A DNA stretch of 64,000 nucleotides from an uncultured bacterium (lineage in GTDB: Bacteria; Patescibacteriota; Minisyncoccia; UBA6257; GWB1-50-10): contig OY970216.1 of the NCBI GenBank assembly GCA_963713955.1, forward strand, positions 209,934 to 273,933, in the 5' to 3' direction. The notes beneath the pieces were generated by a model, which worked only from the letters and a program-made list of their open reading frames with translations, made no database searches and was not told the origin of the DNA. Numbering within the stretch: position 1 is the stretch's first letter; every line of letters begins with the position of its first letter. The translations under genes and the position numbers were made by a program. Of the stretch, positions 7,810 to 47,519 are shown piece after piece.

Positions 7810-9138
7810 ATGAATACAAATAAAATCCTAACAATTTTCGCATCAGTTCTGCTAGTTGCCGTGCTTTTTACCTGGAGAGCTATGGCCTACAATGAGCCAA
7901 GCTATCCCGCACCAGGCGGATCGGTAAATTCGGCGATAGACACCGGCCCCTATGCCCAGAGTAAAAGCGGTCGGCTCGACATTAACATAAACGGGGGTGA
8001 TCTTGTTTTGTCTACGTCATCCATGCCCCAGATCCAGTTCAGCGACAGCGGAGGGGAGGGCATTTTAGAAATGGCCCAAATACCCAATGTTGGTTATGTT
8101 CCTTCGCTTCAATGGAGTACCAATCCGCCGGTGGCTTTAGCGGGTGAGTGGTATGTAACGTCGACTCAAGGTGGTACTATCTTCTCCTACTCACCTTATA
8201 ATGTTGGTATATCAATCCCGCCTTTTACTAGTGGTCCTTCTCAAAGCGCTCTCGGTGAGCTGGTGATGGGAGATGGGAGCAATGCTGGGCTGGTTCTCAA
8301 TGCGGGAAACGGTGGAAACTACATAACATACGGCGCTCATTATGATAATTCGTCAGCGAGTTTAGGTTGGATAGCTAACTCTTCTTCGGGAAATTATCAT
8401 CCGATGCAGATTTATTTCTCGGGAGACGGCAATCAGCTGGCCTTGAGAGTCGGAGATTCCCAACCTGATACCAGTGTACTATGGAAGAGTTCGCTGGCTA
8501 TTGATTCTTCGAATTCTACTATAACATTCAGTGATAGGTATGCAGGTACTGTCATGGGCCCTCATTTTGAATATATGCCGCAAAGCATTCCGTCCGGAGC
8601 GACCGCGACAGATTATACCCAGCAGTTCCTGAGTAGTAATCCTAACGTTAAATCTTATACCGATATATCGGGAAATAGATGTATGGCCTATACGGAGAAC
8701 TTTCCCACTATTATCTCTTCGCCTCCGTCTAACTTGTGCAATGCTTCTGACTTTGGGAAGGATATATATGCCTATCTCAACCATGCTCAGTATGATGAGA
8801 ACGATAACCTCACCTGTGGTCTCACGGCTTACTACCGGTGTGTCGCCGATCAACAGGATCCTCGGAATAACACTTCGAAACTTTACGTCGGTGTTTTGGA
8901 GTTGAAAGACCAAAAATGGAGCGGCACAGTGGAAGCGAGTACGACTATAAGTGGCGATGCGCTCGAATTGAAACTCGGCAATTCATATTACGATTCCTGG
9001 GTCATGTGTCCAAACGGCTATTTCTTGAGTGGAATACACACCTCTGTCTTAAGTAAATCAGGACAATCAACGAGTTACAATATAGTCAACGATGGAAAGA
9101 ATGTAAATGATGCTTACATAGAATGCAGCAAATTATAG
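7810..9138 (+). CDS. Secreted paralog 3 (N-motif DTGPYAQSKSGRL, C-terminal CPNGYFLSG...C).
   Basis: 442 aa. N-terminal hydrophobic ILTIFASVLLVAVLF. Same conserved terminal motifs as paralogs 1 and 2. Confidence 0.6.
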   Translation: MNTNKILTIFASVLLVAVLFTWRAMAYNEPSYPAPGGSVNSAIDTGPYAQSKSGRLDININGGDLVLSTSSMPQIQFSDSGGEGILEMAQIPNVGYVPSLQWSTNPPVALAGEWYVTSTQGGTIFSYSPYNVGISIPPFTSGPSQSALGELVMGDGSNAGLVLNAGNGGNYITYGAHYDNSSASLGWIANSSSGNYHPMQIYFSGDGNQLALRVGDSQPDTSVLWKSSLAIDSSNSTITFSDRYAGTVMGPHFEYMPQSIPSGATATDYTQQFLSSNPNVKSYTDISGNRCMAYTENFPTIISSPPSNLCNASDFGKDIYAYLNHAQYDENDNLTCGLTAYYRCVADQQDPRNNTSKLYVGVLELKDQKWSGTVEASTTISGDALELKLGNSYYDSWVMCPNGYFLSGIHTSVLSKSGQSTSYNIVNDGKNVNDAYIECSKL

Positions 9139-9144
9139 ATTTTT

Positions 9145-11295
9145 ATGACTAGATTATCCATCAAAAAACTTTTCGTCTTCTTCGCTGGGGCAATTGTGGT
9201 AGGGGGAGCGTTTGTGATAACTGGCCATTATGTACTTGCCCTGACGACGGTGCCTGGGGGTAACAATGGCGGCGGGACGGCGGGGAATAATATATCAGTT
9301 CAGATACTGGTTAATGGGGCGTCGAACCTATCCGCCGGTTCGGTAATAGGAAGTAGGATAGACTGCGGAGAGGGAAGCAATATTTGCGGTGGCAGCATAC
9401 CGACGGGTGCAACGAGCGTCACCTTCACGGAGACCCCCGCATCAGGTTACATCTTCAATTCGTGGGGGGGCGATTGCAATAACACGACCGGTAACACGTG
9501 TACCGTGAGTTGGGGTCAAGATCCCACGCCGACGAGCATAAATGTTATTGCTAATTTTGTTTCTTCCCCGGTTCCGTCGCCAGTATCCAGTGCTCTATCT
9601 GTGCAAGTAACCGTCGGCGGGAGTGTCAATAACAGTGCTGGTGTAGTTTCAAGTACGGCGGCGAGCGCGGGAGTTCCTCCTATAAAGTGCGGTGGGAATT
9701 CAACAAACTGCAGCACTAGTTTGAAATTCCCCCCGTCGCAGCGGATTACCCTCACGGCTTCTCCAGCGGGAGGGTACACGTTCTCCGGGTGGAGTTTCTC
9801 AGGGGCTGCTGTTGATACCAATTGTCCGGCGACAGATCTTACTTGCATGGTCGCAAATGATGGGTGGACCACAGCAGGCACCGTCTCAGCCAACTTCACT
9901 AAAATAACCCCTGCTTTTGCCGGTAATATTACGGCGAACATCGTTTACGCGTCGACGACCGGCGGGACGGCGACGGTGTATTTGAGCTGGCCGGCGGCCA
10001 AGAACGCACCGGGAGTAACGTATGCCATTTCGAGAGGTAGCACTCCCGTGGGTAGTACAGCGTCAACCTCATACTATGATACGTCAGCGCCGTTAGGAAA
10101 TTCCGCTACGGTATACAGCATCACGGTAAGCGGTATAAGTGGTAGCATGACGTCTAATTCTCTTGACCTGAACTTACAGAAGGTGCTCACCGGTTATGCG
10201 TGGGCGAACGCCAATGCCTCCACGGTGAGTGGCAGCACTGTGACTACAAAATCGACAAAGTCCTATAACTGGAATAGCGCAAGCACTCCTTTCGATGTGA
10301 GCGGGAGCGCAAGTTCCAATTCTATTACTCTGAGTTTTTCCGAGCCGGCGTCAGGATCTTCTAATTGGTCGCAAGATCCTTCCGCTGATGAAGCCGTCTA
10401 TAGATGTCCGGATTCGGGTTATACTCTCAACTGCAAAAATGTAAGTCAATCTTTGAATGTAAACCCGGGTGGTACGTGGTCTTTTACTGATTCCAATTTG
10501 GTTTTTGCATCGACTTACTACTACGAAGTGGCAACTCATGACCAATATGGCAGCATGTACATAGTATATTTGGCTGCCACGACGAACAGCGCGGCCAACT
10601 ATCAAGGCATCGGCTGGATCAAATTCAGTTCGGACACAACCTCATCGCCGTCGGATACCAATCAGTACGGTGTGTATATTGATGACAAAGGGAATCTTTC
10701 CGGGTATGCCTGGAGCGGGATGCAGTGTCCTTCGGGCCAGAGCGGCAACTGCGGCTACGGTTGGCTCTCGTTCAACGAGAGCGATGCGTCCCATCAGCGT
10801 GGATCGTTCACAGGTGCCGGTCTCACGGATTGGGCAAGATTTCTCACGTTTGCAAACGGCGGGAGTTCCTGGGACGGCTGGGTGAATTTAGGCGGCGTTT
10901 CGTACGATCCTTCGACGAAGATGTTCGGCGGCAGAACGCCGACGTTGCCCGTGGATGTTCTGGGCCAGATGTCTTTCTGCGATCCGAATAACGGAGCGAA
11001 CTATTGCGTCAGGGGAACGCCACCACCGCAGCCGCCGATAATCAAGCCGGTCTCCGCCGTAACGTATAACAGCTTCACGGTGAACTGGACCAATCCGCAG
11101 AAGTATACGAAGATTGAAGTTTATGTCAGCAAGCCAAATAATTCCACTGATTTTAGTTCTCCTCCTGCCGACCAACCGGTATTTGCAACCACGAGTCAAA
11201 GCTACGTCAATGCGACGACAAGTATCCTCTCGGTCCCGGTAAATGCCCTCCCCAATATGCAATATGGCATGTTTGTCAGAGGATATCTAAAATAG
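9145..11295 (+). CDS. Large secreted/surface protein with divergent InlB B-repeat-like domains, GYAW...GWI(S/K)F repeats and a C-terminal fibronectin type III-like domain.
   Basis: 716 aa. N-terminal TM/signal FVFFAGAIVVGGAFVITG. InlB-B-like unit (GSVIGSRIDCGEGSNICGGS...GYIFNSWGGDCNNTTGNTCTV...VIANF). Repeats GIGWIKFSS..., GYAWSGMQCPSGQSGNCGYGWLSFNESDA. Fn3-like VTYNSFTVNWTNPQKYTKIEVYVS. Confidence 0.6.
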   Translation: MTRLSIKKLFVFFAGAIVVGGAFVITGHYVLALTTVPGGNNGGGTAGNNISVQILVNGASNLSAGSVIGSRIDCGEGSNICGGSIPTGATSVTFTETPASGYIFNSWGGDCNNTTGNTCTVSWGQDPTPTSINVIANFVSSPVPSPVSSALSVQVTVGGSVNNSAGVVSSTAASAGVPPIKCGGNSTNCSTSLKFPPSQRITLTASPAGGYTFSGWSFSGAAVDTNCPATDLTCMVANDGWTTAGTVSANFTKITPAFAGNITANIVYASTTGGTATVYLSWPAAKNAPGVTYAISRGSTPVGSTASTSYYDTSAPLGNSATVYSITVSGISGSMTSNSLDLNLQKVLTGYAWANANASTVSGSTVTTKSTKSYNWNSASTPFDVSGSASSNSITLSFSEPASGSSNWSQDPSADEAVYRCPDSGYTLNCKNVSQSLNVNPGGTWSFTDSNLVFASTYYYEVATHDQYGSMYIVYLAATTNSAANYQGIGWIKFSSDTTSSPSDTNQYGVYIDDKGNLSGYAWSGMQCPSGQSGNCGYGWLSFNESDASHQRGSFTGAGLTDWARFLTFANGGSSWDGWVNLGGVSYDPSTKMFGGRTPTLPVDVLGQMSFCDPNNGANYCVRGTPPPQPPIIKPVSAVTYNSFTVNWTNPQKYTKIEVYVSKPNNSTDFSSPPADQPVFATTSQSYVNATTSILSVPVNALPNMQYGMFVRGYLK

Positions 11296-11417
11296 CCCTA
11301 TAAATCAAGGTTATTTTGTTTCGTTTGATTTTTTCGTATATTTGTGGTATAATAGTAATCTAGAAATAAGAAGAACGTTTTTTAAAAACTAAAAAGCTCA
11401 GAAAGGAGCGATTCGAA

Positions 11418-12716
11418 ATGAAAACGATCATTCTTTCGGCTTTAATGCTCCTCATGAGCATTGCGCCGATAGATGTTTTGGGACAACAAAGTTCTGTGGC
11501 CCAAAAGGTGAACGGCTGTAACATCAGTCTCAAGTATAGTTGGTTCCCAGGCGGAGGCAGCATCAACGTGAGATCCGTGGCAGTTGTCAATGGAACCATC
11601 ATTGCTGGGACTACTGGCTGGAACGGGACAGCGTTCGTTGCGCCGGTGTATGTTTCTCAGGATACCGGCAAAACGTGGATTCCAATTGATTCCGCGAGAG
11701 GTCTCAATATTCCATGGAACCGGGTTTTCTCAGTATCTGCCGTGGATTCTCATCAGGTTATCATCGGAGCTGATTGTGGGATATACAAATCAATGGATTC
11801 CGGACTGCACTGGATTCAAGTTTATAATGATCCCAATGCTGGTTTTGGAGTATCCTACCTTGGCTACGATACTGTCATAGCCTGTGGTGGCCCCGGCGCC
11901 CTGAAGTCGAATGACAACGGTAATACTTGGCACTATGTAAGTAACGAGAACGTTGGCTGGGTAGTGAAAGCGCCAAATGGAAATCTGGTCAGTGGTATAG
12001 GAAGTGCTTTCGAGAGTGATGCTAAAGGTATCGTGATATCGTCTGATGGAGGGAATAATTGGGAGTCCTCCAACACGGGACTTACCAACAAAAACATATT
12101 TTCCCTGTCTGCCGATAGATCTGATGTCTATGCTGTCACTCATATCGGTGGCACATTTGTATCGCACGATGATGGCTCTTCATGGAGTCCGGTAACCAAT
12201 CTTCCTGATCAAGGGGAAGTTGTATCGACGATAAGTGGTTTGGGTGTGTTCGCTGGTTTCAGCCAGTCGGGTCAGCCAACCCTTTACTGGTCTCGTGACG
12301 GATCGAGTTGGTCTGCGGTCACCGTGTTCGACAATTGGCCGTTCTCGTTTGCTGAATTTGACTCAACCACCGTCGTTATCGGAACCGAAAGCGGCGTATG
12401 GATTGCGCACTTTGATAATCTCACTCCAGTTATCGAGCACCCTACAATTGCCACAAACTTCGCGTTATCCCAGAACTACCCGAACCCGTTCAACCCGACC
12501 ACTGCTATCAGATTCACGGTTTCAAAGAGAAGCTTTGTAACGCTCTCGGTCTACAACGTCCTTGGCCAGTTGGTGAAAACCCTGGTCAATGACGAGAAAA
12601 GTCCGGGAACTTACGAAGCAAGCTTTGACGGTACTTCACTCCCGTCGGGCACCTACATCTATCGTTTGCAAACTGATTTATACTCGCAGACGAAGAAAAT
12701 GGTTCTTTTAAAGTGA
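11418..12716 (+). CDS. BNR/Asp-box repeat beta-propeller protein (sialidase-like or Ycf48-like fold) with a type IX secretion system C-terminal sorting domain (Por_Secre_tail type).
   Basis: 432 aa. Signal peptide. Six S-x-D-x-G-x-(T/S)-W repeats (SQDTGKTW, SMDSGLHW, SNDNGNTW, SSDGGNNW, SHDDGSSW, SRDGSSW). C-terminus LSQNYPNPFNPTTAIRF...LSVYNVLGQLVKTLVN...SGTYIYRLQTD...KKMVLLK matches the T9SS CTD consensus. Extended -10 promoter ttgtggtataat and RBS aaaggag upstream. Confidence 0.75.
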   Translation: MKTIILSALMLLMSIAPIDVLGQQSSVAQKVNGCNISLKYSWFPGGGSINVRSVAVVNGTIIAGTTGWNGTAFVAPVYVSQDTGKTWIPIDSARGLNIPWNRVFSVSAVDSHQVIIGADCGIYKSMDSGLHWIQVYNDPNAGFGVSYLGYDTVIACGGPGALKSNDNGNTWHYVSNENVGWVVKAPNGNLVSGIGSAFESDAKGIVISSDGGNNWESSNTGLTNKNIFSLSADRSDVYAVTHIGGTFVSHDDGSSWSPVTNLPDQGEVVSTISGLGVFAGFSQSGQPTLYWSRDGSSWSAVTVFDNWPFSFAEFDSTTVVIGTESGVWIAHFDNLTPVIEHPTIATNFALSQNYPNPFNPTTAIRFTVSKRSFVTLSVYNVLGQLVKTLVNDEKSPGTYEASFDGTSLPSGTYIYRLQTDLYSQTKKMVLLK

Positions 12717-12727
12717 TCTTGTTCAAG

Positions 12728-12764
12728 GAGGTTCAGCTTAAAAACTGAACCTCTTTTCCGTTTT
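12728..12764 (+). terminator. Terminator hairpin gaggttcag-cttaaaaa-ctgaacctc plus ttttccgtttt. Copy 1 of a repeated terminator; the second copy is at about 19070.
   Basis: Perfect 9-bp stem immediately after the BNR gene stop, then a T-run. A near-identical element (cttgttcaa[a/g]gaggttcag...ctgaacc..ttttccgtttt) recurs at 19061-19108. Confidence 0.55.
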
Positions 12765-18726: not shown

Positions 18727-18909
18727 TTCTATCACAAAAACCGAAAACATAATTTCCATTGAAGGTGGCGACACTTTTCTCCGGTGTACAACAAACATCC
18801 CGGAAATTACGTTGCTACGTTTAACGGCAGCAAATTCGCAAGCGGTCTATACTTCTACCGCCTGCAAGCTGACGATCTTTCTCTTACCAAGGAAATGATC
18901 TTGATGAAG
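18727..18909 (+). pseudogene. Relic C-terminal fragment of a T9SS C-terminal-sorting-domain protein. Truncated, with an internal deletion.
   Basis: In-frame translation ...FSPVYNKHPGNYVATFNGSKFASGLYFYRLQADDLSLTKEMILMK* aligns to the last ~35 aa of the 11418 and 26777 gene products (SPGTYEASFDGTSLPSGTYIYRLQTD...KKMVLLK). An upstream in-frame TGA and no N-terminal body. About 150 nt downstream lies a copy of the terminator repeat. Confidence 0.6.
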
Positions 18910-19069
18910 TAGTTTCGAAAAGTCCGTGCGCTTCGCACCTCCGGGCTTTTCTGCGTTTACGCGGCTTGTTTCCTCCTTCCCCTAATTTCTCCAAAACTAT
19001 CCTTATACCACGATCGTGGTGTTAGGGGAGATTTTGGAATCATCCGCCTGTGAAGTGACCTTGTTCAAA

Positions 19070-19108
19070 GAGGTTCAGTCCTAAAAAACTGAACCCCTTT
19101 TCCGTTTT
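19070..19108 (+). terminator. Copy 2 of the gaggttcag...ctgaacc hairpin plus ttttccgtttt terminator repeat.
   Basis: ttgttcaaagaggttcag-tcctaaaaaa-ctgaacccc-ttttccgtttt. Compare with 12721-12764. Confidence 0.5.
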
Positions 19109-19319
19109 ATATACTAATATTTGGCCTCCCGCTCTCCATATACTAATACCCCCAGCAAAATTCGCCTTAACTATTGATGTCCGACGTCAATAGATTGTGG
19201 TTGCTTTAGAATTCCGCCTCCGCGCAAAGAGCTATGCGCAAAAGTGAGGCGCTATAACTAATCATAGCGCCCAATATATACTTGTTTTTCAGTAAATTTA
19301 ATGATATTATTGAAACAAT

Positions 19320-19535
19320 ATGAGCCGACAATTTACCGCCATTTATAAAAAGACCGGGAAATGGTATTCTGCTTGGGTAGAAGAAATTCCCGGCGTTAAT
19401 ACTCAAGGCCGCACACTAAAAGAAGCCAAAGAAAATCTCAAGGAAGCTCTGGTGCTTGTTTTAGAAACGAGTAAACTTTTGGTCAAAAGCTCTGATTCTA
19501 AGGTTTTAAGAGAACCGATTTCCGTGTCTTTATGA
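19320..19535 (+). CDS. hicB: HicB-family antitoxin (UPF0150 fold), cassette 1.
   Basis: 71 aa. FTAIYKKTGKWYSAWVEEIPGVNTQGRTLKEAKENLKEALVLVLE matches the HicB N-terminal domain pattern (..Y.A.VPELPGC.TQG.TLEEA..N.KEAI.L.LE). The sigma70-like promoter ttgttt-N17-tattat is directly upstream. Confidence 0.7.
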   Translation: MSRQFTAIYKKTGKWYSAWVEEIPGVNTQGRTLKEAKENLKEALVLVLETSKLLVKSSDSKVLREPISVSL

Positions 19536-19723
19536 AGAGGCGCGAACTTGTGAATCGTATCATGAAGCAAGGTTGCGTTTTTGTACGCGAGGGCGCTAAG
19601 CATAGCGTCTTTTTTAATCCCGAAACAAAAAGAATTTCGACGGTACCGCGTCATCAGGAAATCAATAATTTCTTAGCCGAGAAAATCTGTCAGGACTTGG
19701 GCATACCAAAGTCGAGGAAATAG
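19532..19723 (+). CDS. hicA: HicA-family mRNA interferase toxin, cassette 1.
   Basis: 63 aa. KRRELVNRIMKQGCVFVREGAKHSVFFNPETKRISTVPRHQEI fits HicA (YcfA-like: K..E..K.L...G....R..GSH..F.HP.....TVP.H). Overlaps hicB by 4 nt. Confidence 0.75.
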   Translation: MKRRELVNRIMKQGCVFVREGAKHSVFFNPETKRISTVPRHQEINNFLAEKICQDLGIPKSRK

Positions 19724-19810
19724 CGGCTACGGCTGGTTCTCGTTCAACTCGAGTGATGTCCAGGGATGCTCACGAAGTAATACTCAGTGTCAGCCAATCG
19801 TCAGCTTAAT

Positions 19811-20284
19811 ATGAACACCTATTTGAAGAAGTTCATCGACTCCGAGTTTGACAGACCAGGTAAGGCGTTGGATCTGGGGGCGGGAGATTTTTTTGACGTG
19901 GTTTGCCTAAAGCAGCTGAAATGGCAATGCGAAGGCGTAGATATAAAGACCGGCGTTGACTTAGAGAAGCCCTACCTTTCTCCAAGGAGACCGTTTGATC
20001 TTGTTTATTCCAACTACTTAATCCACAAACTCAAGAACAAAAAGCAACTTATCAAGACAGTATTCAACAATTTAAAAAGCGGGGGTTGGTTTTTCCTCCA
20101 CACTTTTGACAAGTCAGATCCTAACAGCCGGTCAACTATTACTGCTAAGTCTATAGAAAATCTATTGAACAAAGAAAGTTTTAAAAGCATTGGCACGCGG
20201 ATTTTCAGCTATTACGATAATGAAGAGGGCCACAAGCATTGGCATAGGATTCTGGAGGTTACCGCGCAGAAACAAGAAGCATAA
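19811..20284 (+). CDS. Small class I SAM-dependent methyltransferase. Start at MNTYLKKF; the ORF track gives 19787.
   Basis: Motif I ALDLGAGDFFDVVCL. Motif-IV-like SGGWFFLHTF. About 158 aa. Confidence 0.6.
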   Translation: MNTYLKKFIDSEFDRPGKALDLGAGDFFDVVCLKQLKWQCEGVDIKTGVDLEKPYLSPRRPFDLVYSNYLIHKLKNKKQLIKTVFNNLKSGGWFFLHTFDKSDPNSRSTITAKSIENLLNKESFKSIGTRIFSYYDNEEGHKHWHRILEVTAQKQEA

Positions 20285-20422
20285 AATGGGAGAAGGCTGA
20301 TACCTGCATCAGCCTTTTGAACTTCTTATTTGCCCGCGTGGTTTCACCACTGTTCCGGGCTTTTCTGCATTTAATGGAGCCACTATTGACAATTTTATTT
20401 CCACGCTTTAGTATACTAAAGT

Positions 20423-20725
20423 ATGAAAGAACAAGATAAATGGATGAATAGGAATAGCGACGCACTTTTTGAGGCCATTCTTAGGCTTAGGAATCTCAAT
20501 GAAACCAGGAGATTCTTCAGGGATCTCATGGCCGAGAAGGAAATCGCTGAATTCAGTAACCGGTGGAAGGCTGCGCGGATGCTTAACCAAAAGATGTCCT
20601 ACAAAAAGATAGCCAAGGAGACCGGCTTGAGCTCGACGACTATCGCACGAGTACAGAAGTGGCTCAAGGGGAATCTGGGCGGTTACCGGCTAATATTGAG
20701 AAGATCAGGACAGAACTATTTATGA
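20423..20725 (+). CDS. YerC/YecD-family TrpR-like DNA-binding protein.
   Basis: 100 aa. LFEAILRLRNLNETRRFFRDLMAEKEIAEFSNRWKAARMLNQKMSYKKIAKETGLSSTTIARVQKWLKGNLGGY is the characteristic YerC/YecD signature (HTH ...TG.S.ATIARV). A promoter-like ttgaca..N..agtatact lies upstream. Confidence 0.7.
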   Translation: MKEQDKWMNRNSDALFEAILRLRNLNETRRFFRDLMAEKEIAEFSNRWKAARMLNQKMSYKKIAKETGLSSTTIARVQKWLKGNLGGYRLILRRSGQNYL

Positions 20726-22049: not shown

Positions 22050-22805
22050 ATGGAATCCGGCAAGACAATCACCATCCTCTCGACTTTTACCGAGGATATA
22101 CTTGTGAACGAAGAAGGGGAAGTGATCAGGAAACAAAGAGGAGGACCGGCATTTTATCTCGAGCGGACCTTCAGGCGTGAGAAAGTAACGTCAGTTTTAA
22201 AGACTGGTCCCGAGATGGAAGTCAAAATCCTTGTGGCAAAAACAGGAGAGCTTGGCATGGTTTCACGGGGGTCGTCACCACAGAAAGTAAGATTCTCGGA
22301 CCTCAAAACACCATTTCTCCTTATTTCCACAGTGTTAAACGAATTTGATCTGACCGAGCTTCCGCAGTTCAGAGGATTTGTATTTCTCGATGTTCAAGGC
22401 TATGTAAGAAACGGCAGTCGTTTTGGAAAGAAGAAGCTATGGCGTCCCACCAATAGGGTGTTTAGCAGTATTTTCTGCCTCAAGGGCACTGGAGAAGAAT
22501 TGAAGAGTTTACCGGATCACTATCTTGAGACTCAAAGGGGAAAAATTCTCATAACCACGAATGGTAAAAGTGGTTGTGAAATTTTCACCTTCGGTAAACG
22601 TGATGTTGTAAAACCGAAAAGAATTGTCGTGACAGGAAACACGGTAGGGGCCGGCGATACATTTTTCGCTAATTTTATTTCCCATTTTACGAGGACAATG
22701 GATGCCTCCGTTAGTGCCAGGTACGCCGTGAAGGAAACCTCAGTTTTCCTCTCCGCAATAAGTTCGTGTAATCTTAAATGCAATCACCCTAATGAAACAA
22801 GATAG
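22050..22805 (+). CDS. PfkB-family carbohydrate/nucleoside kinase (ribokinase-like).
   Basis: 251 aa. N-terminal GGPAFYLE (GG motif) and C-terminal VVTGNTVGAGDTFFANFIS (DTxGAGDxF anion-hole motif). Confidence 0.7.
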   Translation: MESGKTITILSTFTEDILVNEEGEVIRKQRGGPAFYLERTFRREKVTSVLKTGPEMEVKILVAKTGELGMVSRGSSPQKVRFSDLKTPFLLISTVLNEFDLTELPQFRGFVFLDVQGYVRNGSRFGKKKLWRPTNRVFSSIFCLKGTGEELKSLPDHYLETQRGKILITTNGKSGCEIFTFGKRDVVKPKRIVVTGNTVGAGDTFFANFISHFTRTMDASVSARYAVKETSVFLSAISSCNLKCNHPNETR

Positions 22806-23504
22806 CAAGCTTATCATTTTTGATCTCGATGGGACTATCTATAAATTGGACGGCGGGTCTTATAAAAAATCCTCTTTACGGAGGGGCGTGTTGCGGAACG
22901 CAGTCAAATTCATCGGAGAAAGACTGTCTAGAAGTGAGGTAGAGGCTCAGAATGTACTCCGGACCATTAAAAAGAAATATGGTGAACAGATAAGTATCGG
23001 ATTGGAGAGAGAGTTTGGAATCGATCGCCATGATTACTTCAATACTGTTTGGGACATTCCGGCCCGTGATCTTGTTACAAAGAAAGACAGCGGGCGAAAA
23101 ATCCTACTAGCCCTGAGAAGGGAGTATGAAATGGCGCTTGTGTCTGATGCCCCACGTGTTTGGATAAACAACGTTCTAAAAGAGTTGGGAATTAAAACCT
23201 CTTTAGCGGTATGGTATTCTCTGGCGAGGGGAACCGACGCAAGGGTTTTGGTAATACTTTTGCGGATATCACACGAACTCTAAAAACCTCTCCACAAGAT
23301 TGTATTGTTATCGGTGATCAAGAGAATACAGACATTGTTCCTGCAAAGAGACTCGGCATGTACACTATCTTCGTCAGCCCAAAAAAACGTTCTCTCATAG
23401 CCGATGACACTATTTCATCCATTCGCGAACTCCCGGCGGCACTTAGAGCTGAGGCTCTTTTTAACTTCAACGAAAATCTACCAAAGGAAATTTTATTGCA
23501 GTGA
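22792..23504 (+). pseudogene. HAD-superfamily hydrolase split into two overlapping reading frames (22792-23283 and 23211-23504). Either a genuine frameshift pseudogene or an assembly indel.
   Basis: Frame A: MKQDSKLIIFDLDGTIY (HAD motif I DxDGT) ... ALVSDAP ... LKELGIKTS. Frame B continues ...FSGEGNRRKGFGNTFADI...CIVIGDQENTDIVPAKRLGMYTIFV (motif III Lys and IV GDxxxD). A single-base frame change near 23196-23215 would fuse them. Confidence 0.5.
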
Positions 23505-23699
23505 CTTTTGAAAAAACCCGCATGGTTTCACCACTGTTCCGGTTTTTCTGCGTTTACGCGGCTTGTTTCTCCCGCCAGCAGGCTCTTCGGTTTTCAAAAT
23601 TCCACCCTCGCGCAAAAGCTATGCCTGAAAGTGGGATGCTACAGTTAACTGTAGCAGCTCGGATTTCTCAGACTATGCCGCGTTTGCATTTGAACGAGC

Positions 23700-23963
23700 T
23701 TGTTGTATAATCTAGAAATGGCCAAGAAACAGCAGTTCAAAATTCTTATCGAGCAAGGTGATGACGGAATGTTTGTTGGGAGCGTTCCTTCCTTGCCTGG
23801 TTGTCATACGCAAGCTAAGACCCTCCCCGAGCTGAAGAAACGGATTCGGGAAGCGATTGAACTCTGTCTTGAAGTTGCCAAGGAAGATGCCAGCTACCGG
23901 GCGAGAATAAAACAGTTTGCTTACGAACCGACCTTCGTTGGCCTTGAGATGGTCAGCGTATGA
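23700..23963 (+). CDS. hicB: HicB-family antitoxin, cassette 2.
   Basis: 87 aa. FKILIEQGDDGMFVGSVPSLPGCHTQAKTLPELKKRIREAIELCLE is textbook HicB/UPF0150. Promoter ttgcat-N17-tataat lies 8 nt before the ATG (near-leaderless). Confidence 0.8.
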   Translation: MLYNLEMAKKQQFKILIEQGDDGMFVGSVPSLPGCHTQAKTLPELKKRIREAIELCLEVAKEDASYRARIKQFAYEPTFVGLEMVSV

Positions 23964-24187
23964 GCAGGCATCTACCTGTCTTGAAAGCAAAGGATGTTAT
24001 AAAGATTTTGAGAAAGCTGGGCTTTTATGAGGTGCGAACGAAAGGTTCGCACGTCTTTTTCAAGCATCCTGATGGCAGAGTGACGTTAGTCCCCGTGCAT
24101 AGGAGAGAAAATATAGGCAAAGTGCTCTTACATCAAATCATGAGAGAGGTTAAGATTACGCCTGAAGAATTCTCTAAGTTGTTATAA
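23960..24187 (+). CDS. hicA: HicA-family toxin, cassette 2.
   Basis: 75 aa. KAKDVIKILRKLGFYEVRTKGSHVFFKHPDGRVTLVPVHRRENIGKVLLHQIMREVKIT is the canonical HicA/YcfA signature. 4-nt overlap with hicB. Confidence 0.8.
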   Translation: MSRHLPVLKAKDVIKILRKLGFYEVRTKGSHVFFKHPDGRVTLVPVHRRENIGKVLLHQIMREVKITPEEFSKLL

Positions 24188-24522
24188 ATCCCTGCGGCTA
24201 CGGTTGGCTCTCTCTTTTCTCTTCAAGAGCTTCTTTGTTGAAAGAAATTTGGCAATCGGTTTCGCGCAGTTGGGACAAAAATCATAACTATCAAAACCAA
24301 TGCCGACGGAGATTGCTTCCCTCAGCTTCCTTAAACTCTTCCGACAGATATCACACTTGCGGATGATCATATCTTTTCTCTCGTGCAAGCAATTATACCA
24401 CGCCAAGATTTTTTTTCGAGGCCCTGTGGCTATGGTTTTCGAACAGCGCCGTTGGAGGATTCTTGGATTGCTCGTCGCCTCGGTGAAAACTCAATCTTCG
24501 TTTGCAAAGAGGCTAACAATGC

Positions 24523-25326: not shown

Positions 25327-25454
25327 AACAGTTTTATTATACCAATAAAAGCCGAACGAACAATGAAGATATTCCACCACTCCTCATACTAAGAAGTGAT
25401 GGAGTATAAAAAGGCAGAAAAGTCCGGAGGTGCTAAGCACACGGACTTTTCGTA

Positions 25455-26777
25455 TCACTTCAAAAGCAGCATCTTCTTCGTCAGTGACAACCCATCAGAG
25501 GTTGTCAGACAATAGAAGTATGTGCCCGACGGAAAGTGACTTCCGTCGAACTGTACGACACGAATTCCTGGAGAAACAGTACCGTCCACCAATGTCGCTA
25601 CTTCTTGCCCGAGAACATTGTAAACCTTGAGGGTCACAAATGTTCTCAAAGCAACCGTATAGCTGATCGTCGTGGTCGGGTTGAACGGGTTCGGGTAGTT
25701 CTGGTTCAGGGTGAAGCCGTAGGGCTGGTTTGTTGTCGCATGGACTGCGGTTATAACACCATCGACACGCCACAGACCATTGGTAGTGCCGACGAGAAGC
25801 GAATGATTCTGAATCGCCAGACTCATCACTCCGATGGGAATGCCATTGATGCTATTTGGTACTACTTGCGTCCATCGTGCTCCGTCGTATTTGAATACAC
25901 CACCAGTTGCCGATCCCTGCCCACTGAAGCCGACGAAAATGGTATTCTTCTGGCCCACGAGAATAGTGGTCGCCTCTTTCTGAGACGAATCTATTCCTGT
26001 GATTTTCGTCCAGGTACCGCCGTTATCAATCGACTGATACACACCATCACCGGTACCGGTGAATGGGTTTCCGGTTCCGGCGTATAGGACACCGTTACTG
26101 TCAGCAGCTATGGCCTCAACATCTTGGAAGTTGATACCATTATCACTAGGCTGCCACGTTTTCCCTTCATTGGTGGAACAGAAAACGCTCGCACTATTCG
26201 CAATATTAACTGTCCCAGCAAAGATGAAACCTCTCGTATACACCAGAGTATTCACATACAGCGTGCTATCGTAGAAGATAGTTTTCCAATTTTCGCCGCC
26301 ATCAAATGATTGTAGGATGCCACCAGAAATGCCAGCCATAATTGCATCTCCTCTGATCAGGAAACATGTGATTGACGCACTATGCTTCCACGTTGTATAG
26401 GGTGACGGTGGAGAAGGTTGGGTCCAGCTTGAACCATTGTCGGTGGAACGGAATAACCCGTTCACGGTCCCGACAAGTATAGCGTTGGTCTTGGGATCGC
26501 GAACGACCGCATAGCTATAACGAGACCACCAATCGAGATTGATAGGCAATTGGGTCCATACTGCACCGTCATCCGTCGTCTGCATTATGCCCATATCAGC
26601 GGTAGCGGCAAGTATGTCATTGCTATCGCCGTCAACCCATAGTGAATTGACATTGATGCTCTGACCTATAAGACTGTCCGGCCAGATGTACGAGTAGGAA
26701 ACAGACGTACTGGATTGGCTTCTCGCGGACGAGATGCCAATCAGTACGGCTGCGAGAAACAATCCAATATTTTTCAT
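25455..26777 (-). CDS. Second BNR/Asp-box repeat beta-propeller protein with a T9SS C-terminal sorting domain. Start at MKNIGLFLAAVLIG.
   Basis: Signal peptide. Asp-box repeats (TTDDGAVWTQ, STDNGSSWTQ, SFDGGENWKT, STNEGKTWQP, SIDNGGTWTK). C-terminus LNQNYPNPFNPTTTISYTVALRTFVTLKVYNVLGQEVATLVDG...SGTYFYCLTTSDGLSLTKKMLLLK. 32 nt of the CTD coding sequence are identical (inverted) to gene 11418. Confidence 0.75.
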   Translation of the reverse strand: MKNIGLFLAAVLIGISSARSQSSTSVSYSYIWPDSLIGQSINVNSLWVDGDSNDILAATADMGIMQTTDDGAVWTQLPINLDWWSRYSYAVVRDPKTNAILVGTVNGLFRSTDNGSSWTQPSPPSPYTTWKHSASITCFLIRGDAIMAGISGGILQSFDGGENWKTIFYDSTLYVNTLVYTRGFIFAGTVNIANSASVFCSTNEGKTWQPSDNGINFQDVEAIAADSNGVLYAGTGNPFTGTGDGVYQSIDNGGTWTKITGIDSSQKEATTILVGQKNTIFVGFSGQGSATGGVFKYDGARWTQVVPNSINGIPIGVMSLAIQNHSLLVGTTNGLWRVDGVITAVHATTNQPYGFTLNQNYPNPFNPTTTISYTVALRTFVTLKVYNVLGQEVATLVDGTVSPGIRVVQFDGSHFPSGTYFYCLTTSDGLSLTKKMLLLK

Positions 26778-26872
26778 TTTCAACTCCTTTCTAAACTCTA
26801 TTATAACATAAATGCTCAATCTTTGCAACAAAAAGGCGATACGGTAAAAGAATATATGCTATAATACAAGAA

Positions 26873-37984: not shown

Positions 37985-38371
37985 ATGTTTAAAGCAAAAG
38001 AAGGTTTCACCTTGATAGAAATGCTCGTCGTGATCGCGATGATCGGGCTTCTCTCGGCCGTTATCCTGGTCGCCCTCGGCCCCTCGAGAACCAAAGCCAA
38101 GGACACGAGAGTTATCTCGGACATAAACCAGATGAGGAGTTTGATGGAGTCAAGCTTCAATCCAAGTACAAGCCAATACGGTTCACCCGCCACGAGCAGC
38201 TTGGTGAACGACATAATCAGTCAAGGATCCTCTTTACAAGGTAGTGCATCTTCGACGGCTTACTGGTTCTACGCCTCGTTGCCGTCCGGCTCGGGAATGT
38301 ACTGCGTCGATAGTACTGGGTACTCGGGCATCGTAACTTCAACTAATACCGCAAGCTCTACTTGCCAATAA
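37985..38371 (+). CDS. Type IV pilin (prepilin with class III signal peptide).
   Basis: MFKAKEGFTLIEMLVVIAMIGLLSAVILVALGP has the G|FTLIEM cleavage/N-methylation motif. C-terminal Cys pair. Confidence 0.8.
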   Translation: MFKAKEGFTLIEMLVVIAMIGLLSAVILVALGPSRTKAKDTRVISDINQMRSLMESSFNPSTSQYGSPATSSLVNDIISQGSSLQGSASSTAYWFYASLPSGSGMYCVDSTGYSGIVTSTNTASSTCQ

Positions 38372-38378
38372 GCATAAG

Positions 38379-38849
38379 ATGAGAAAAAAAGGTTTCACTC
38401 TCATCGAAATGCTCATCGTGATCGCGATGATCGGAATTCTCTCGACGGTTATTTTGATTGCCCTCGGCCCCTCAAGGACCAAGGCGAAGGATACGAGGAT
38501 AATTTCGGACGTTAATCAGATAAGATCTCTTGGAGAAACATACTACGATCCCATAACGGGCCAGTACGATCTTGCGGGCGTGGCCGCGGCGGCTTCCTCC
38601 ACATTAGCTGACATGAGTGCTATGAATGGCGGAACATGGCAGCCGGACTGTCCATTTGGAAATCCCGACAACGGCATTAAGCCGTGGAGTGGCGATTCTG
38701 ATATTCAGGGAGTAGAGTGCCCCACCTCATTTGATAAATTTTCTGTTTACGGTAAGCTAGTTAGCCCCTCGGTTACTACCTACTACTGTGTGGACAGTTC
38801 AGGAAATACTGCCAACCTGAATCATGTGCCGGGCGTTACCTGTCAATAA
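38379..38849 (+). CDS. Type IV pilin.
   Basis: MRKKGFTLIEMLIVIAMIGILSTVILIALGP. Four Cys in the C-terminal half. Confidence 0.8.
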   Translation: MRKKGFTLIEMLIVIAMIGILSTVILIALGPSRTKAKDTRIISDVNQIRSLGETYYDPITGQYDLAGVAAAASSTLADMSAMNGGTWQPDCPFGNPDNGIKPWSGDSDIQGVECPTSFDKFSVYGKLVSPSVTTYYCVDSSGNTANLNHVPGVTCQ

Positions 38850-39331
38850 TGCGTCCCTTACACTATATAATGTGTAGAAATTCTAAGTCTGGTTTCACTC
38901 TCATTGAAATGCTCGTCGTGATCGCGATGATTGGTCTCCTCTCGGCTGTCATCCTGGTCGCCCTCGGCCCCTCGAGAACCAAAGCCAAGGACACGAGGGT
39001 GATTTCGGATGTGAACCAGGTCCGGGTGTTGGCAGAGAACTTGTTTGACATTTCCACTAGTAAGTACCCGACGTGTATTTGTAACAACTACCCGTGGGAC
39101 GATTGCAAACCCGATCCTGGCTTCTCGGCACTTAAGTCGGACGTGGCGAACGATGGTGGTTCATTCAGTGCAGGCTGCAATAACAAAAATACAGTTGCAG
39201 TTTTTTATTCCAGTCTACCGAGCGGCGGTGGCTATTGTGCTGATACCGCAGGGGGTGCCATTTCCGGTACGGTAGCCTCCAGTTCTCCACCCGGAACCCC
39301 AAATATAGGTGATGTTTGCCCAGAGCAGTAA
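38849..39331 (+). CDS. Type IV pilin. An alternative start is at ATG 38870 (MCRNSKSGFTLIEM).
   Basis: ..NSKSGFTLIEMLVVIAMIGLLSAVILVALGP. The nucleotide sequence of the N-terminal region is nearly identical to pilin 37985. Confidence 0.75.
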   Translation: MRPLHYIMCRNSKSGFTLIEMLVVIAMIGLLSAVILVALGPSRTKAKDTRVISDVNQVRVLAENLFDISTSKYPTCICNNYPWDDCKPDPGFSALKSDVANDGGSFSAGCNNKNTVAVFYSSLPSGGGYCADTAGGAISGTVASSSPPGTPNIGDVCPEQ

Positions 39332-39461
39332 GATGTAATATTATTAAACAATCCAGATGGTGAGAAAATATTTTTCTAAATCAGGCTTTACCCCGCACCG
39401 AGCCAAGCGCTGCAACGCTCTCGCGTTTTCAACAATGACAAGGGATAAGCTGGAACCAACA

Positions 39462-39986
39462 ATGGACATCAAGAGCCGAAATCACCCGTCAGCTGCGAGC
39501 GTTGAAAACGAAGCGCTTGATCTGGTGTCGGGGTTTACCTTAATCGAAATGCTCGTCGTCGTGGCTGTCATCGGGCTTCTTTCGTCCATTCTGTTGAACG
39601 CGTTGGGGCCTGCGAAGGACAAAGCGAAAGACGCAAGGATCATGCAGGAAGTGAATCAGGTGAGAGACATCGCCGAGACCTTGTACAACGGTACGTATAC
39701 CAATTTGCCCTCCATATCCGCCGGCACGACCCAGGTGAATAATGCCAATCTCCAATCGCTCACTTCTGACATTGATCTCCAGGGAGGGGAGCTGCACGTC
39801 GTTTTGTCATCTGACGTGAGAACCTACGTGGCTTACTCCAAACTGAACACAATGGTGCCGGATCCGGTAACAGGTACCCCGACGACCCAGTACTACTGCG
39901 TCGACAGCTCGGGAAAAGCGGTTTTTCTCACGACCCAGCCCAATGACAATAGAATAAGCAATTCTTCGCCGGCCACGTGCGATTAG
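39462..39986 (+). CDS. Type IV pilin with a long leader (MDIKSRNHPSAASVENEALDLVSG|FTLIEM). The ORF track starts at 39357 and includes a degenerate partial copy of a pilin N-terminus (KSGFTPHRAK).
   Basis: SGFTLIEMLVVVAVIGLLSSILLNALGP. The upstream in-frame stretch aaatcaggctttacc... mimics the first codons of pilin 38870 and then diverges. Confidence 0.65.
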   Translation: MDIKSRNHPSAASVENEALDLVSGFTLIEMLVVVAVIGLLSSILLNALGPAKDKAKDARIMQEVNQVRDIAETLYNGTYTNLPSISAGTTQVNNANLQSLTSDIDLQGGELHVVLSSDVRTYVAYSKLNTMVPDPVTGTPTTQYYCVDSSGKAVFLTTQPNDNRISNSSPATCD

Positions 39987-41038: not shown

Positions 41039-41548
41039 ATGAAGGAAGGATTCACTCTCATAGAGACATTGATCGTTCTCGCGATAACGGCGATCCTCTC
41101 GACCATATTCTTGGCCTACAACAGTTCTTCGAACGGCCAAGTCGCGCTCTATACGGAGCGGGCGCAAGTGGTGGGAGCGCTCCAAAGAGCTAAGACGCTC
41201 GCTCTCGACAAATACATGGTGAGCCCCGGGAGCACCTCTTCCTGCGCTTTCGGCGTTCATTTCCAAACCTCGACGGGAGTTTACTCCATTTATGGAAAAT
41301 ACCCGCCGCCCGGCAGCACCGATTGCACCGCCGGTTACGGCTTCATGGGCAACTCAAGTGACACGGTGGTGCAAAGCTTGCAACTCCAGGGAAAGGTTGG
41401 ATTTGTCGATCCCACCCCGTCAGACATTTATTTCGTCCCGCCGTATTTCATCGCAAACGCGACCGGCACTATCACCCTCAAGAGCAACGATAGCGGTGCC
41501 ACGGCGTCCATCGAGGTCACTCAAGGAGGGAGCATTTCATCTCTTTGA
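41039..41548 (+). CDS. Minor pilin / pseudopilin-like protein (FimT/GspH-like).
   Basis: MKEGFTLIETLIVLAITAILSTIFLAY has a class III signal. 169 aa. Confidence 0.7.
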   Translation: MKEGFTLIETLIVLAITAILSTIFLAYNSSSNGQVALYTERAQVVGALQRAKTLALDKYMVSPGSTSSCAFGVHFQTSTGVYSIYGKYPPPGSTDCTAGYGFMGNSSDTVVQSLQLQGKVGFVDPTPSDIYFVPPYFIANATGTITLKSNDSGATASIEVTQGGSISSL

Positions 41549-42081
41549 CGAATATGAGAATAACGCGTCTTAAAAACCGGGAAGGCAGCCTTATGATAGA
41601 AGCCATCGTGGCGGCGAGCCTCGTCGTCGTGGGTCTCTTGGGACTTTTCAATTTGATTTACAACTCGACGGTCAGGGACAAAGACGTAATCCACAAACTC
41701 CAGGCGACGTACTTAGCAGCGGAGGGAATAGAAGTGGTAAAAAACTTCATAGATCAAAACGTCGCTAGCGGAACTCAATGGAACGCCAATCTGTACACAG
41801 GGGATTATCAAGATGTTTCGTTCGATAATCTGGGTCAGGTCGGGACTGGGGATAGCGCCGTTTATTTTGCGACAACCACGGGACTTTTTACCGGATATAG
41901 TTCGGTGTTCACCGCTTTTTCCGGCGGGTCGAGAGAGTTGGCGCTCTTTTCCCGGGTCGTATCGTTGAATGTCGGAACGAATCAAATCAGCGTCACGTCG
42001 ACCGTTTCCTGGTCGGAAGAAGGGAAAAGTGAGTCGGTGAGCTTAGACGACATCTTCTATAATTGGAGGAAACCAAGTTAA
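41545..42081 (+). CDS. Minor pilin-like protein with an atypical prepilin N-terminus.
   Basis: REGSLMIEAIVAASLVVVGLLGLF (G-SLMIEA variant of the cleavage motif). 178 aa. Confidence 0.5.
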   Translation: MTNMRITRLKNREGSLMIEAIVAASLVVVGLLGLFNLIYNSTVRDKDVIHKLQATYLAAEGIEVVKNFIDQNVASGTQWNANLYTGDYQDVSFDNLGQVGTGDSAVYFATTTGLFTGYSSVFTAFSGGSRELALFSRVVSLNVGTNQISVTSTVSWSEEGKSESVSLDDIFYNWRKPS

Positions 42082-42147
42082 ACTTTGTAATATGTTTTTT
42101 GGAATTCATTTCAAAACACCTCTCTGGGTGAAAAAATGCGTGAGGAT

Positions 42148-42228
42148 GCAGACTCAGGAGGGCAAAAAAGTGGGTAAGACTTGGCCTAGCGGCCCGGAGC
42201 GCACACCTTTTTGGCTTCCTGAGTCTGC
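42148..42228. repeat. Copy 1 of a structured palindromic intergenic element: 37-nt conserved core (42170-42206) flanked by A6/T5 runs and a 12-nt inverted repeat gcagactcagga / tcctgagtctgc.
   Basis: Core gtgggtaagacttggcctagcggcccggagcgcacac. Also present at 47461-47497 (+) and 45376-45412 (reverse complement). Confidence 0.6.
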
Positions 42229-42265
42229 AATTATTACCTTTAAAGAGAAGAAGTTACAGAAATAC

Positions 42266-45352: not shown

Positions 45353-45356
45353 TAAA

Positions 45357-45431: not shown

Positions 45432-45435
45432 TTCC

Positions 45436-47436: not shown

Positions 47437-47440
47437 GGAA

Positions 47441-47517: not shown

Positions 47518-47519
47518 TT

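Follow-up and report, generated by a model that had tools for sequence, protein, structure and literature searches.

HicA, the toxin of HicB-HicA toxin-antitoxin (TA) modules, belongs to a family of ribosome-independent mRNA-cleaving toxins with a catalytic histidine, located in a G-x-H motif in the beta-strand that follows the first helix. The catalytic role of this conserved residue is known from the published literature on the family. In the classical autoregulated HicAB systems, namely, E. coli hicAB, Burkholderia pseudomallei HicAB (6G26/6G1N) and Streptococcus pneumoniae HicBA (PMC6159526), the toxin resembles double-stranded RNA-binding domains and is covered by the N-terminal partial RNase H fold of HicB, and the C-terminal ribbon-helix-helix (RHH) or helix-turn-helix (HTH) domain of HicB binds palindromic operators in the promoter. 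In class 2 hicBA modules, hicB is located upstream, HicB has 63-103 codons and no recognisable DNA-binding domain (DBD), and the genes are close or overlapping (Gerdes 2024, mBio 15:e03293-23, PMC10865869). Classes 1 and 2 are the commonest contexts of HicA, and the regulation of their DBD-less operons is unexplained (PMC10865869). Here we analyzed a 64,000-nucleotide stretch (hereafter, the window) of an uncultured bacterium of the Patescibacteriota lineage GWB1-50-10 (contig OY970216.1, positions 209,934 to 273,933), in which an open reading frame (ORF) list and a Pfam scan place two HicB-HicA pairs, both on the plus strand. The two pairs are distantly related to each other, yet each is embedded in the same succession of elements: a terminator hairpin (module (i)), a second hairpin repeat (module (ii)), its own promoter, hicB, hicA and a stump of a surface-protein gene with a GYGW motif. 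On balance, and with confidence only a little better than even, we consider these pairs to be ordinary TA modules in a recombination-prone array of surface-protein genes, with the shared flanks representing local debris and repeats rather than TA signals.

All coordinates are positions within the window unless one of the locus labels L006, L010 or L012 is given. The comparative evidence comes from approximately 12 kb of one sister species (L006) and from short contigs of two other species (L010 and L012); L006-L009 all represent one related species (GCA_021824045.1 and others) and are 99.9% identical among themselves. Significance of DNA similarity was assessed by comparing local alignment scores with those of dinucleotide shuffles (n = 500 for the comparisons of the two units).

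The first pair occupies positions 19320-19723, exactly as originally predicted, whereas the second, predicted at 23700-24187, starts at 23718, where an ATG is preferred over the TTG at 23700. hicB1 (19320-19535, +) encodes a 71-aa single-domain HicB antitoxin with a partial RNase H-like fold. Its score against UPF0150 (PF21748), 27.0 bits, falls just under the cut-off of 27.3 bits, and that against HicB_lk (PF15919; cut-off of 27 bits) is 19.3 bits. Its assignment to HicB is supported by a match to residues 6-50 of Burkholderia HicB in PDB entries 6G1C/6G1N (E 1e-4), by its 1846 homologues, several of which are named HicB by their sources, and by the overlap of the gene with hicA. hicA1 (19532-19723, +), the start of which overlaps the hicB1 stop (ATGA), encodes a 63-aa HicA toxin that scores 39.0 bits against PF07927 (E 9e-10; gathering cut-off of 27 bits). 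Its His24 (GAKH24SVFF, within REGAKHSVFF) is kept in the L006, L010 and L012 orthologues. hicB2 (23718-23963, +) encodes an 81-aa single-domain antitoxin with matches to both PF15919 (34.8 bits, E 2e-8, covering only profile positions 1-72 of 123) and PF21748 (29.7 bits, above the cut-off), as well as to the PDB structures of TTHA1756 (2YZT, E 2e-7) and 6G1N (residues 3-77, E 1e-3). hicA2 (23960-24187, +), again joined to its antitoxin gene by an ATGA overlap, encodes a 75-aa HicA toxin (PF07927, 68.9 bits, E 4e-19) that matches PDB 1WHZ (E 3.5e-11), the KGSH31VFF segment being aligned to KGGHRLY.

With hicB preceding hicA, a 4-nt overlap in each pair, HicBs of 71 and 81 residues and no DBD, both pairs belong to class 2 of the hicBA type II TA modules. 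The Pfam scan detected neither an RHH nor an HTH domain in HicB1 or HicB2, and the alignments to the 142-aa 6G1N end at residue 50 or 77. Both proteins match only the N-terminal, toxin-binding part of 6G1N/6G26 or the small proteins TTHA1756 and TTHA1013. They thus share with the classical systems the toxin-covering fold of HicB and the type of toxin but end before the operator-binding domain; besides, the palindrome of this locus is located upstream of the promoter rather than in it. Compared to class 2 hicBA (antitoxin first, HicB without DBD, HicA of 60-85 aa, overlapping genes) and to the Thermus thermophilus proteins TTHA1756 (2YZT), TTHA1013 (1WV8) and 1WHZ, the genes show no difference: they are ordinary TA modules of an already classified kind. 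Only the genomic frame is unusual: two unrelated members of the class are enclosed by shared flanking repeats and gene stumps. Each operon would form a compact unit of approximately 450-530 nt that starts with a sigma-70-type promoter of its own, ends at the hicA stop and is transcribed as one two-gene mRNA; translation of hicA would be coupled to that of hicB through the ATGA overlap, and the single-domain HicB would neutralise HicA through direct binding. Since it has no DNA-binding domain, such a HicB should be unable to repress its own promoter alone.

The original prediction regarded the two pairs as copies of a duplicated cassette. The cargo refutes this. The two antitoxins share 39% identity over 38 aa and the two toxins 28% over 60 aa, and the DNA of promoters and genes (19273-19723 versus 23660-24187) aligns with a score of 11, at the level of the shuffles (12.3 +/- 1.5). 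Moreover, for each antitoxin, other metagenomes contain a separate large family of nearer relatives (74-92% identity for HicB1, 70-80% for HicB2), many of them from genomes named Patescibacteria. Hence, the two operons are independent, distantly related units and not duplicates. The flanks behave in the opposite manner: the regions upstream of the two units score 28.5 (shuffles 10.6 +/- 1.4) and the sequences past the hicA stops 15 (7.5 +/- 1.2), with 0/500 shuffles reaching either value. Thus, the claim that both pairs are preceded by the same two-part module is borne out, and chance does not explain the likeness. Recent duplication of a single hicBA locus (tandem or segmental) with subsequent divergence would account for the equal orientation, the equal order of flanking modules and the fully identical second part of module (i) (26/26 nt). 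However, we regard it as extremely improbable, given that non-coding flanks that are 75-100% identical enclose proteins that are 28-39% identical and coding DNA no more alike than shuffles, and that each HicB has nearer relatives elsewhere. Among the latter, the hicB2 relatives in loci L013-L017 (73-80% aa identity) are similar to the window in coding DNA only and have no flanks in common with it; the distant hicB1 relatives in L024-L028 (77-79%) are located between housekeeping genes, again with coding similarity only.

One of the shared flanking elements is module (ii). Copy 1 (19196-19272, +) has the core TATG-N4-AAAGTGAGGCGCTA-N10-TAGCGC and an 8-bp stem in which GGCGCTAT (19248-19255) pairs with ATAGCGCC (19264-19271). 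In copy 2 (23596-23659, +), ATTCCAC (23599-23605) pairs with GTGGGAT (23631-23637), and GCTACAG (23638-23644) forms a hairpin with CTGTAGC (23649-23655); the predicted fold has -22.9 kcal/mol (z -2.9; 0/200 shuffles as stable). The two palindromes differ between the copies while each remains self-complementary, as had been predicted, although the predicted coordinates were off by 4 nt and 18 nt. Over 19205-19268 and 23593-23655, the copies are approximately 75% identical, with a score of 26.5 against 8.0 +/- 1.4 for shuffles (0/500 reach it). No other copies are present in the 64 kb at up to three mismatches. Outside the window, two 65-nt copies, identical to each other, were found in L006 (8907-8971 and 11385-11449, with cores at 8916-8960 and 11394-11438). 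One is located after a gene with a Por_Secre_tail domain (the C-terminal sorting domain of the type IX secretion system type, hereafter Por) and upstream of an operon for a small peptide and a radical-SAM enzyme, the other between two minus-strand genes; neither adjoins hicBA or GYGW fragments. A covariance model built from three copies gives high scores (52-57 bits) only to the L006 copies and the two window copies (57.2 bits for copy 1 and 57.3 bits for copy 2). All copies conform to the core pattern TATG-N4-AAAGTG-RG-RY-GCTA-N10-TAGC (short form, AAAGTGRGRYGCTA-N10-TAGC). The loops are unrelated among the copies; the stem is always a perfect 7-8 bp and includes one compensatory pair, T-A in copy 1 versus C-G in copy 2 and L006.

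Because the two L006 copies are located away from hicBA, module (ii) is not a hicBA signal. Consistently, it is absent upstream of the hicBA1 orthologues in all three other species (L006, L010 and L012). Judged from these sequences, module (ii) appears to be a lineage-specific interspersed hairpin repeat of approximately 45-65 nt, comparable to the REP/BIME or BOX elements. REP/BIME of enterobacteria, BOX/RUP of pneumococci and Correia/NEMIS of Neisseria are interspersed intergenic palindromic repeats. The likeness includes short imperfect palindromes in intergenic regions, mosaic combinations (here, of two variants of the first hairpin of module (i), T1, its second hairpin, T2, and module (ii)), and a position at gene 3' ends, beside terminators, in more than one species of the lineage. 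The differences are the copy number, with two plus two copies seen at non-homologous intergenic sites (in the 64-kb window and in 12 kb of L006), the lack of an identified RAYT or other transposase, a sequence unrelated to the described families (no Rfam match), and a possible coding origin. The latter is plausible, as suggested by similarity between module (ii) and the stump of a Por C-terminal domain at 18796-18860: in 18 comparisons, copy 2 reached p 0.005 and the L006 copy exceeded 400 of 400 shuffles, while copy 1 was not significant. The reading frame shared with the stump is ..ATVN(G/C)S.. in copy 2 and L006 versus ..ATFNGS.., and the best non-self match of the covariance model, 18791-18835, falls into the same stump. 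Module (ii) might therefore descend from a fragment coding for a Por C-terminal domain.

Searches elsewhere did not enlarge the family. A scan of public genomes for GCGCAAA-N0-1-AGCTATGC-NNN-AAAGTG returned four matches, of which the three examined (L002-L004) are chance occurrences within coding sequences of unrelated bacteria; the matches included neither the source genome nor a relative. All five matches of AAAGTGAGGCGCTA-N10-TAGCGC in metagenome contigs are unrelated terminator-type hairpins in other organisms, and scans of viral contigs for module (ii) and for the tail of module (i) gave no matches. In the window, Rfam yielded no match at gathering thresholds and, for 18.7-24.5 kb, only noise at E up to 5. 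Two further candidates were rejected. Identity of module (ii) with the 'GYAWSGM' part of the GYGW gene, which would indicate a clean insertion, is probably a chance resemblance, because only copy 2 is similar (p 0.0055; copy 1, p 0.93; L006, p 0.60); and the 23 nt to the left of the L006 cassette are not significantly similar to module (ii) (p 0.66 and 0.30), so that an eroded copy is not indicated there.

The variable palindrome had been proposed as an operator for HicB autoregulation or as an RNA hairpin. A hairpin upstream of both operons of the window, with a stem kept by compensatory changes, would suit an operator for HicB, HicBA or another factor, or a structure in the transcript, the more so as the control of DBD-less class 1 and 2 hicBA operons is an acknowledged open question (PMC10865869). 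The position of the promoters argues otherwise. The hicBA1 promoter region (19273-19319, +), read from the sequence, has an extended -10 element, TGaTATTAT, at 19302-19310, 9 nt before the ATG; for hicBA2 (23683-23717, +), the promoter scan identified TTTGCA-17-TATAAT (10/12 matches), with the -10 element ending 6 nt before the ATG. A TGnTAnnnT element is likewise found 8-9 nt before the hicB ATG in L006, L010 and L012. With -10 elements only 6-9 nt from the start codon, the hicBA mRNAs are probably leaderless. The distance from the end of the hairpin to the -10 element is unequal (33 nt in copy 1 versus 49 nt in copy 2), and in both cases the hairpin is upstream of the -35 position and outside the predicted leaderless transcript. 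Taken together with HicBs that have no DNA-binding domain, two hairpins at non-TA loci in L006 and none upstream of the hicBA1 orthologues in L006, L010 and L012, a regulatory function of the palindrome in hicBA expression is poorly supported, and we judge it improbable.

Several observations concern promoters of this organism more generally. An extended -10 element (TGnTATAAT) is also typical at 11330-11360 and 24385-24410 (-), besides 19273-19320, and in the window, L006, L010 and L012, only 6-9 nt, free of any Shine-Dalgarno sequence, separate the hicB promoters from the start codon, an arrangement suggesting that leaderless mRNAs are frequent here. A 16-bp perfect palindrome, CTTTAGTATACTAAAG (20406-20421; region 20386-20421), overlaps the -10 element of a TTGACA-17-TAGTAT promoter of a TrpR-family gene (20423-20725) that heads a SLOG/AstE-AspA/PfkB/HAD operon. 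This palindrome is a much better operator candidate, for the TrpR-like repressor, than those next to hicBA.

Module (i) was described in the original prediction as a terminator with a conserved tail, with copies at about 18945 and 23545 and a partial lone copy at about 20355. All three are real, and a minus-strand relative can be added. Copy 1 (18913-18975, +; -20.2 kcal/mol, z -2.3; flagged in the terminator scan) consists of the T1 hairpin (18917-18951, GAAAAGTCCG...CGGGCTTTTC) and the small T2 hairpin (18951-18964) with a T-rich tail. Copy 2 (23512-23569, +), directly after a HAD-hydrolase gene, combines T1 variant 2 with T2, and copy 3 (20332-20373, +), located past the methyltransferase gene 19811-20284 and its own terminator, has T1 variant 2 only. 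The relative at 25410-25454 (-), T1 variant 1 (-18.9 kcal/mol, z -6.0), occupies the terminator position of the intact Por gene 25455-26831 (-). Identities are 26/26 between 18947-18972 and 23544-23569, 37/41 between 20333-20373 and 23517-23556, and 39/43 between 25410-25452 (-) and 18916-18958. The T1 hairpins have an A-rich left foot and a U-rich right foot, and the second small hairpin with its T-rich tail, flagged by the terminator scan, is confined to copies 1 and 2. The predicted hairpins range from -14 to -20 kcal/mol, each followed by CUUUUC, and all four copies directly follow a stop codon or a gene stump. The copies are mosaics of two inner variants with or without the second hairpin. 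By these features, module (i) is a local family of intrinsic (Rho-independent) terminators, derived from neighbouring gene ends, at which termination is predicted. Given that neither module has further copies at up to three mismatches in the 64 kb (none for module (i) beyond these), modules (i) and (ii) are not generic to every gene end of the window.

On the right-hand side, both units end in fragments of GYGW genes. The reference motif, CGYGWLSFNESD (10749-10786, +), is located inside the intact surface-protein gene 9145-11295. After hicA1, a 5'-truncated Flg_new_2/fn3 surface gene (19722-19814, +; frame 19719-19814) begins at the stop of hicA1 and can be read for 31 codons as NSGYGWFSFNSSDVQGCSRSNTQCQPIVSLI*. 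Its segment 19723-19758 is identical to 10751-10786 of gene 9145 at 31/36 nt; in translation, the remnant shares 10/14 aa with gene 9145 and 13/24 aa with an intact GYGW gene of L006 (E 2e-8). Thus, the claim that copy 1 ends in a GYGW fragment with the hicA stop embedded in it holds. A corresponding fragment after hicA2 had been missed: CTGCGGCTACGGTTGGCTCTC (24192-24212, +; CGYGWLS), 5 nt past the hicA2 stop, is 21/21 identical to 10749-10769 of gene 9145 (E 3e-6). A zinc-ribbon ORF (24182-24406, -; CxxC...CxxC, 62-74 aa, no Pfam match) converges on hicA2 with abutting stops (TTATAA). The codons at its end (RANRSRRDL) come from the complementary strand of the 21-nt GYGW patch; the C-terminus of this ORF was therefore probably made by the junction.

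The junction downstream of hicA1 is also present in L006. Positions 5955-6430 of L006 are 85.5% identical to 19273-19747 of the window, the similarity starting exactly at 19273. There, the stop of the hicBA1 orthologue is followed by GGCGGCTATGGCTGGCTGTCGTTCAAT and then by an uninterrupted 185-codon ORF that begins exactly at GYGW and is 42% identical to residues 537-716 of gene 9145 (E 2e-31); a Por gene comes next, the same order as that of genes 9145-11295 and 11418-12716 in the window. Since the sister species shares it, the junction between hicA1 and GYGW predates the split of the two species. The downstream stump would have been worn down since, measuring 594 nt in the sister species, 93 nt in copy 1 and 21 nt in copy 2. 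Past the motif, the stump of the window, SFNSSDVQGCSRSNTQCQP, resembles the other, intact GYGW gene of L006, SFNTSDFNGCPTGAPNCAP, while the stump of L006 is of the 9145 type. Evidently, there has been recombination between GYGW paralogues beyond the motif, or else strict orthology of the junctions does not hold. A search with the C-terminal 181 aa of gene 9145 for other truncated GYGW genes gave one weak, uninformative match. A diversity-generating retroelement with template and variable repeats was also considered and rejected on reading the sequences, as the differences between GYGW copies are not adenine-specific and there is no reverse transcriptase.

In the other two species, hicBA likewise adjoins Por genes or their remains. 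In L012, the last 24 codons of a Por C-terminal domain are found no more than 10 nt past the hicA stop (67% identity, E 1e-10). In L010, hicBA is flanked on one side by a complete Por gene and on the other by a hairpin of the kind with which other Por genes of this species end, suggesting that it sits between a Por gene and the original terminator of that gene. This species-specific terminator hairpin, GGGTGGTATAATTAATTATACCACCC (L010 1617-1654, 2782-2828 and 6434-6473), occurs after two Por genes, and a slightly diverged copy of it is located 24 nt past hicA.

Further debris lies upstream of the units in the window. The end of a Por gene is preserved at 18784-18912 (+), with the last 38-42 codons being 58% identical over 38 aa to the C-terminus of 25455-26831 (-) (E 2e-11) and the DNA similar to 25410-25521. 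A second Por 3'-end remnant (19053-19108, +) comprises the last codon, the stop and a terminator, GGTTCAGT...ACTGAACC with a T run, detected by the terminator scan. Over 56 nt, it has 89% identity with 12711-12764, where gene 11418-12716 ends and its terminator follows. Two overlapping frames (22792-23283 and 23211-23504) make up the HAD-hydrolase gene preceding copy 2 (22792-23504), the last gene of a five-gene operon, reflecting either a frameshifted pseudogene or a sequencing error. The 13-25.5 kb region has 39-46% GC, compared to 49% for the whole window and 51-60% nearby. The window itself belongs to the core chromosome, encoding FtsA/FtsZ, DnaB, LigA, RecR, three aminoacyl-tRNA synthetases, ribosomal protein L21 and a type IV pilus cluster.

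These observations can be combined as follows. The locus would be a lower-GC, rearrangement-prone stretch of the core chromosome within an array of paralogous GYGW/Flg_new_2 and Por genes, where a 5'-truncated GYGW gene forms the right border of the places occupied by hicBA. Two different cargos may have arrived in the same frame through recombination among the repeats or through allelic replacement at a hot spot; the latter is conceivable in an organism that is piliated and possibly transformable. Several points weigh against regarding the shared flanks as debris. Both copies of module (ii) in the window adjoin hicBA, and copies elsewhere are known from approximately 12 kb of one relative; the perfect stems with compensatory differences suggest that the hairpin may be maintained by selection for some function; and the link between module (ii) and Por is moderate, considering the 18 tests and the non-significant copy 1. 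Furthermore, cargos with no DNA similarity share the left border, at the end of the module (ii) hairpin, and also the right border, the GYGW motif following the hicA stop after 0 nt and 5 nt. Finally, the GYGW patch of copy 2 is identical to gene 9145 and not to copy 1; therefore, a simple duplication of the scaffold is insufficient.

The latter points speak for a different explanation, which we consider doubtful, namely, that hicBA pairs are exchangeable cargos of a slot with the module (ii) hairpin as its left border and GCGGCTACGG(Y)TGG of GYGW genes as its right border, exchange relying either on recombination (site-specific or guided by microhomology) or on transformation with allelic replacement via short flanks. 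At both borders, similarity switches sharply from significant in the flank to none in the cargo, and the left limit of similarity between the window and L006 cassettes (19273) coincides with the end of module (ii). Each of the three junctions between hicA and GYGW continues differently on its downstream side; the fragment of copy 2 matches gene 9145 exactly and stands as an isolated patch of 21 nt; the L012 hicA stop adjoins a truncated Por gene; and there is a resemblance between GCGGCTACGG and the 5' arm of the hairpin (GCGCTACGG in L006). However, the orthologous cassette of L006 has a different left flank, without module (ii), and module (ii) is also found alone, without cargo and away from GYGW fragments. 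The closest hicBA2 relatives (no more than 80% aa identity) share no flank, and the scans of public genomes, metagenomes and viral contigs gave no further family members. Only 3' gene fragments are present at the junctions, never the matching 5' parts, so that the junctions look like deletion or duplication joints and not like clean insertions. The ORFs and called genes examined, which cover the 64 kb and a further 3.4 kb upstream, include no integrase, transposase or site-specific recombinase, and neither an att-like core nor an empty site was found. Thus, from the proposal of a mobile or recombining TA cassette that targets GYGW genes, the shared slot boundaries stand, whereas no recombinase, attachment core or empty site came to light. 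The more specific version, in which hicBA pairs are interchangeable cargos of a defined slot in the surface-gene array that needs no cassette-encoded recombinase, is, in our view, a little more doubtful still. Exchange would then proceed by a host site-specific system, by hairpin- or microhomology-guided joining, or by transformation and short-flank replacement in a piliated bacterium with a small genome.

Exchange of different cargos between conserved borders is known from the minimal mobile elements of Neisseria and the TA cassettes of chromosomal integrons or pdif modules, such cassettes being common in chromosomal integrons. The window resembles these systems in that two unrelated hicBA pairs occur between the same borders. 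It differs in that the borders are gene stumps or repeats of 20-130 nt and not intact conserved genes, and in that no attC, dif-like site or integrase was found. An integron-like cassette array, with modules (i) and (ii) as attC sites, would fit the small genes in the same orientation separated by imperfect palindromic repeats, as well as the frequency of TA cassettes in integrons. Still, it has hardly any probability: among the window genes examined, there is no IntI or tyrosine recombinase; by eye, no RYYYAAC...GTTRRRY core pair brackets the repeats (a GTTCAAC in the GYGW fragment of copy 1 has no partner, and copy 2 has neither); one of the would-be cassettes comprises an operon of five genes that has a promoter and an operator of its own; and the repeats are located upstream of the TA promoter instead of after the ORF, as attC sites are. 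The explanation that we favour remains that of ordinary class 2 modules caught in a rearranging surface-gene array.

Other repetitive features were observed in the window and in L006. Four tandem pilin-like genes (37985-39986) have N-terminal methylation motifs, and their 5' segments of approximately 130 nt are 80-88% identical (38003-38131, 38391-38519 and 38891-39019). An unannotated gene (51932-52906, -) contains a 33-nt direct repeat (52382-52414/52499-52531; 32/33) encoding a GFAWNDLVGWISF-type motif, which makes it another protein with GW-type repeats like gene 9145. A long hairpin element is present in three copies (42143-42238, +; 45355-45447, -; 47433-47522, +) with a near-invariant 48-nt apical core, AAAAAAGTGGGTAAGACTTGGCCTAGCGGCCCGGAGCGCACAC, and an outer stem of 13-15 bp that differs between the copies yet pairs in each, 10 pairs showing double compensatory changes. 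Gene 3' ends are found at all three sites (past 41545-42081, in the interval between ligA and a PHP gene, and in that between rplU and recR). The element has no Rfam match, and its 48-nt core no viral contig match; a small element inserted into terminator loops is conceivable, as is a structured RNA. In L006 (3192-4792 and 9215-10666), small lysine-rich peptide ORFs, for example MKKIAVVKKPKKVVSGKISDGNRASTFGCCSNTRILSK, are each followed by a radical-SAM (SPASM) enzyme. These are likely precursor-maturase pairs of ribosomally synthesized and post-translationally modified peptides, interleaved with the surface-protein genes and hicBA.

A palindrome common to two unrelated, DBD-less hicBA operons looked like an answer to the question of how such operons are regulated, and the comparison with related species makes it a lineage-specific intergenic repeat instead. 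The remaining interest lies in the identical frame around two unrelated TA cargos, in itself a modest curiosity for which cassette swapping could be responsible, and in the hicA ends, which are tied to surface-gene debris across four related species. If hicBA pairs do occupy an exchangeable slot, TA pairs would both mark and stabilise the breakpoints of surface-gene rearrangement. Should a mechanism, and not the past of a single scrambled locus, be responsible, the arrangement would show by what route TA modules can spread and endure in very small, streamlined genomes that lack mobile-element machinery, and it would link them to the turnover of surface-protein gene arrays.

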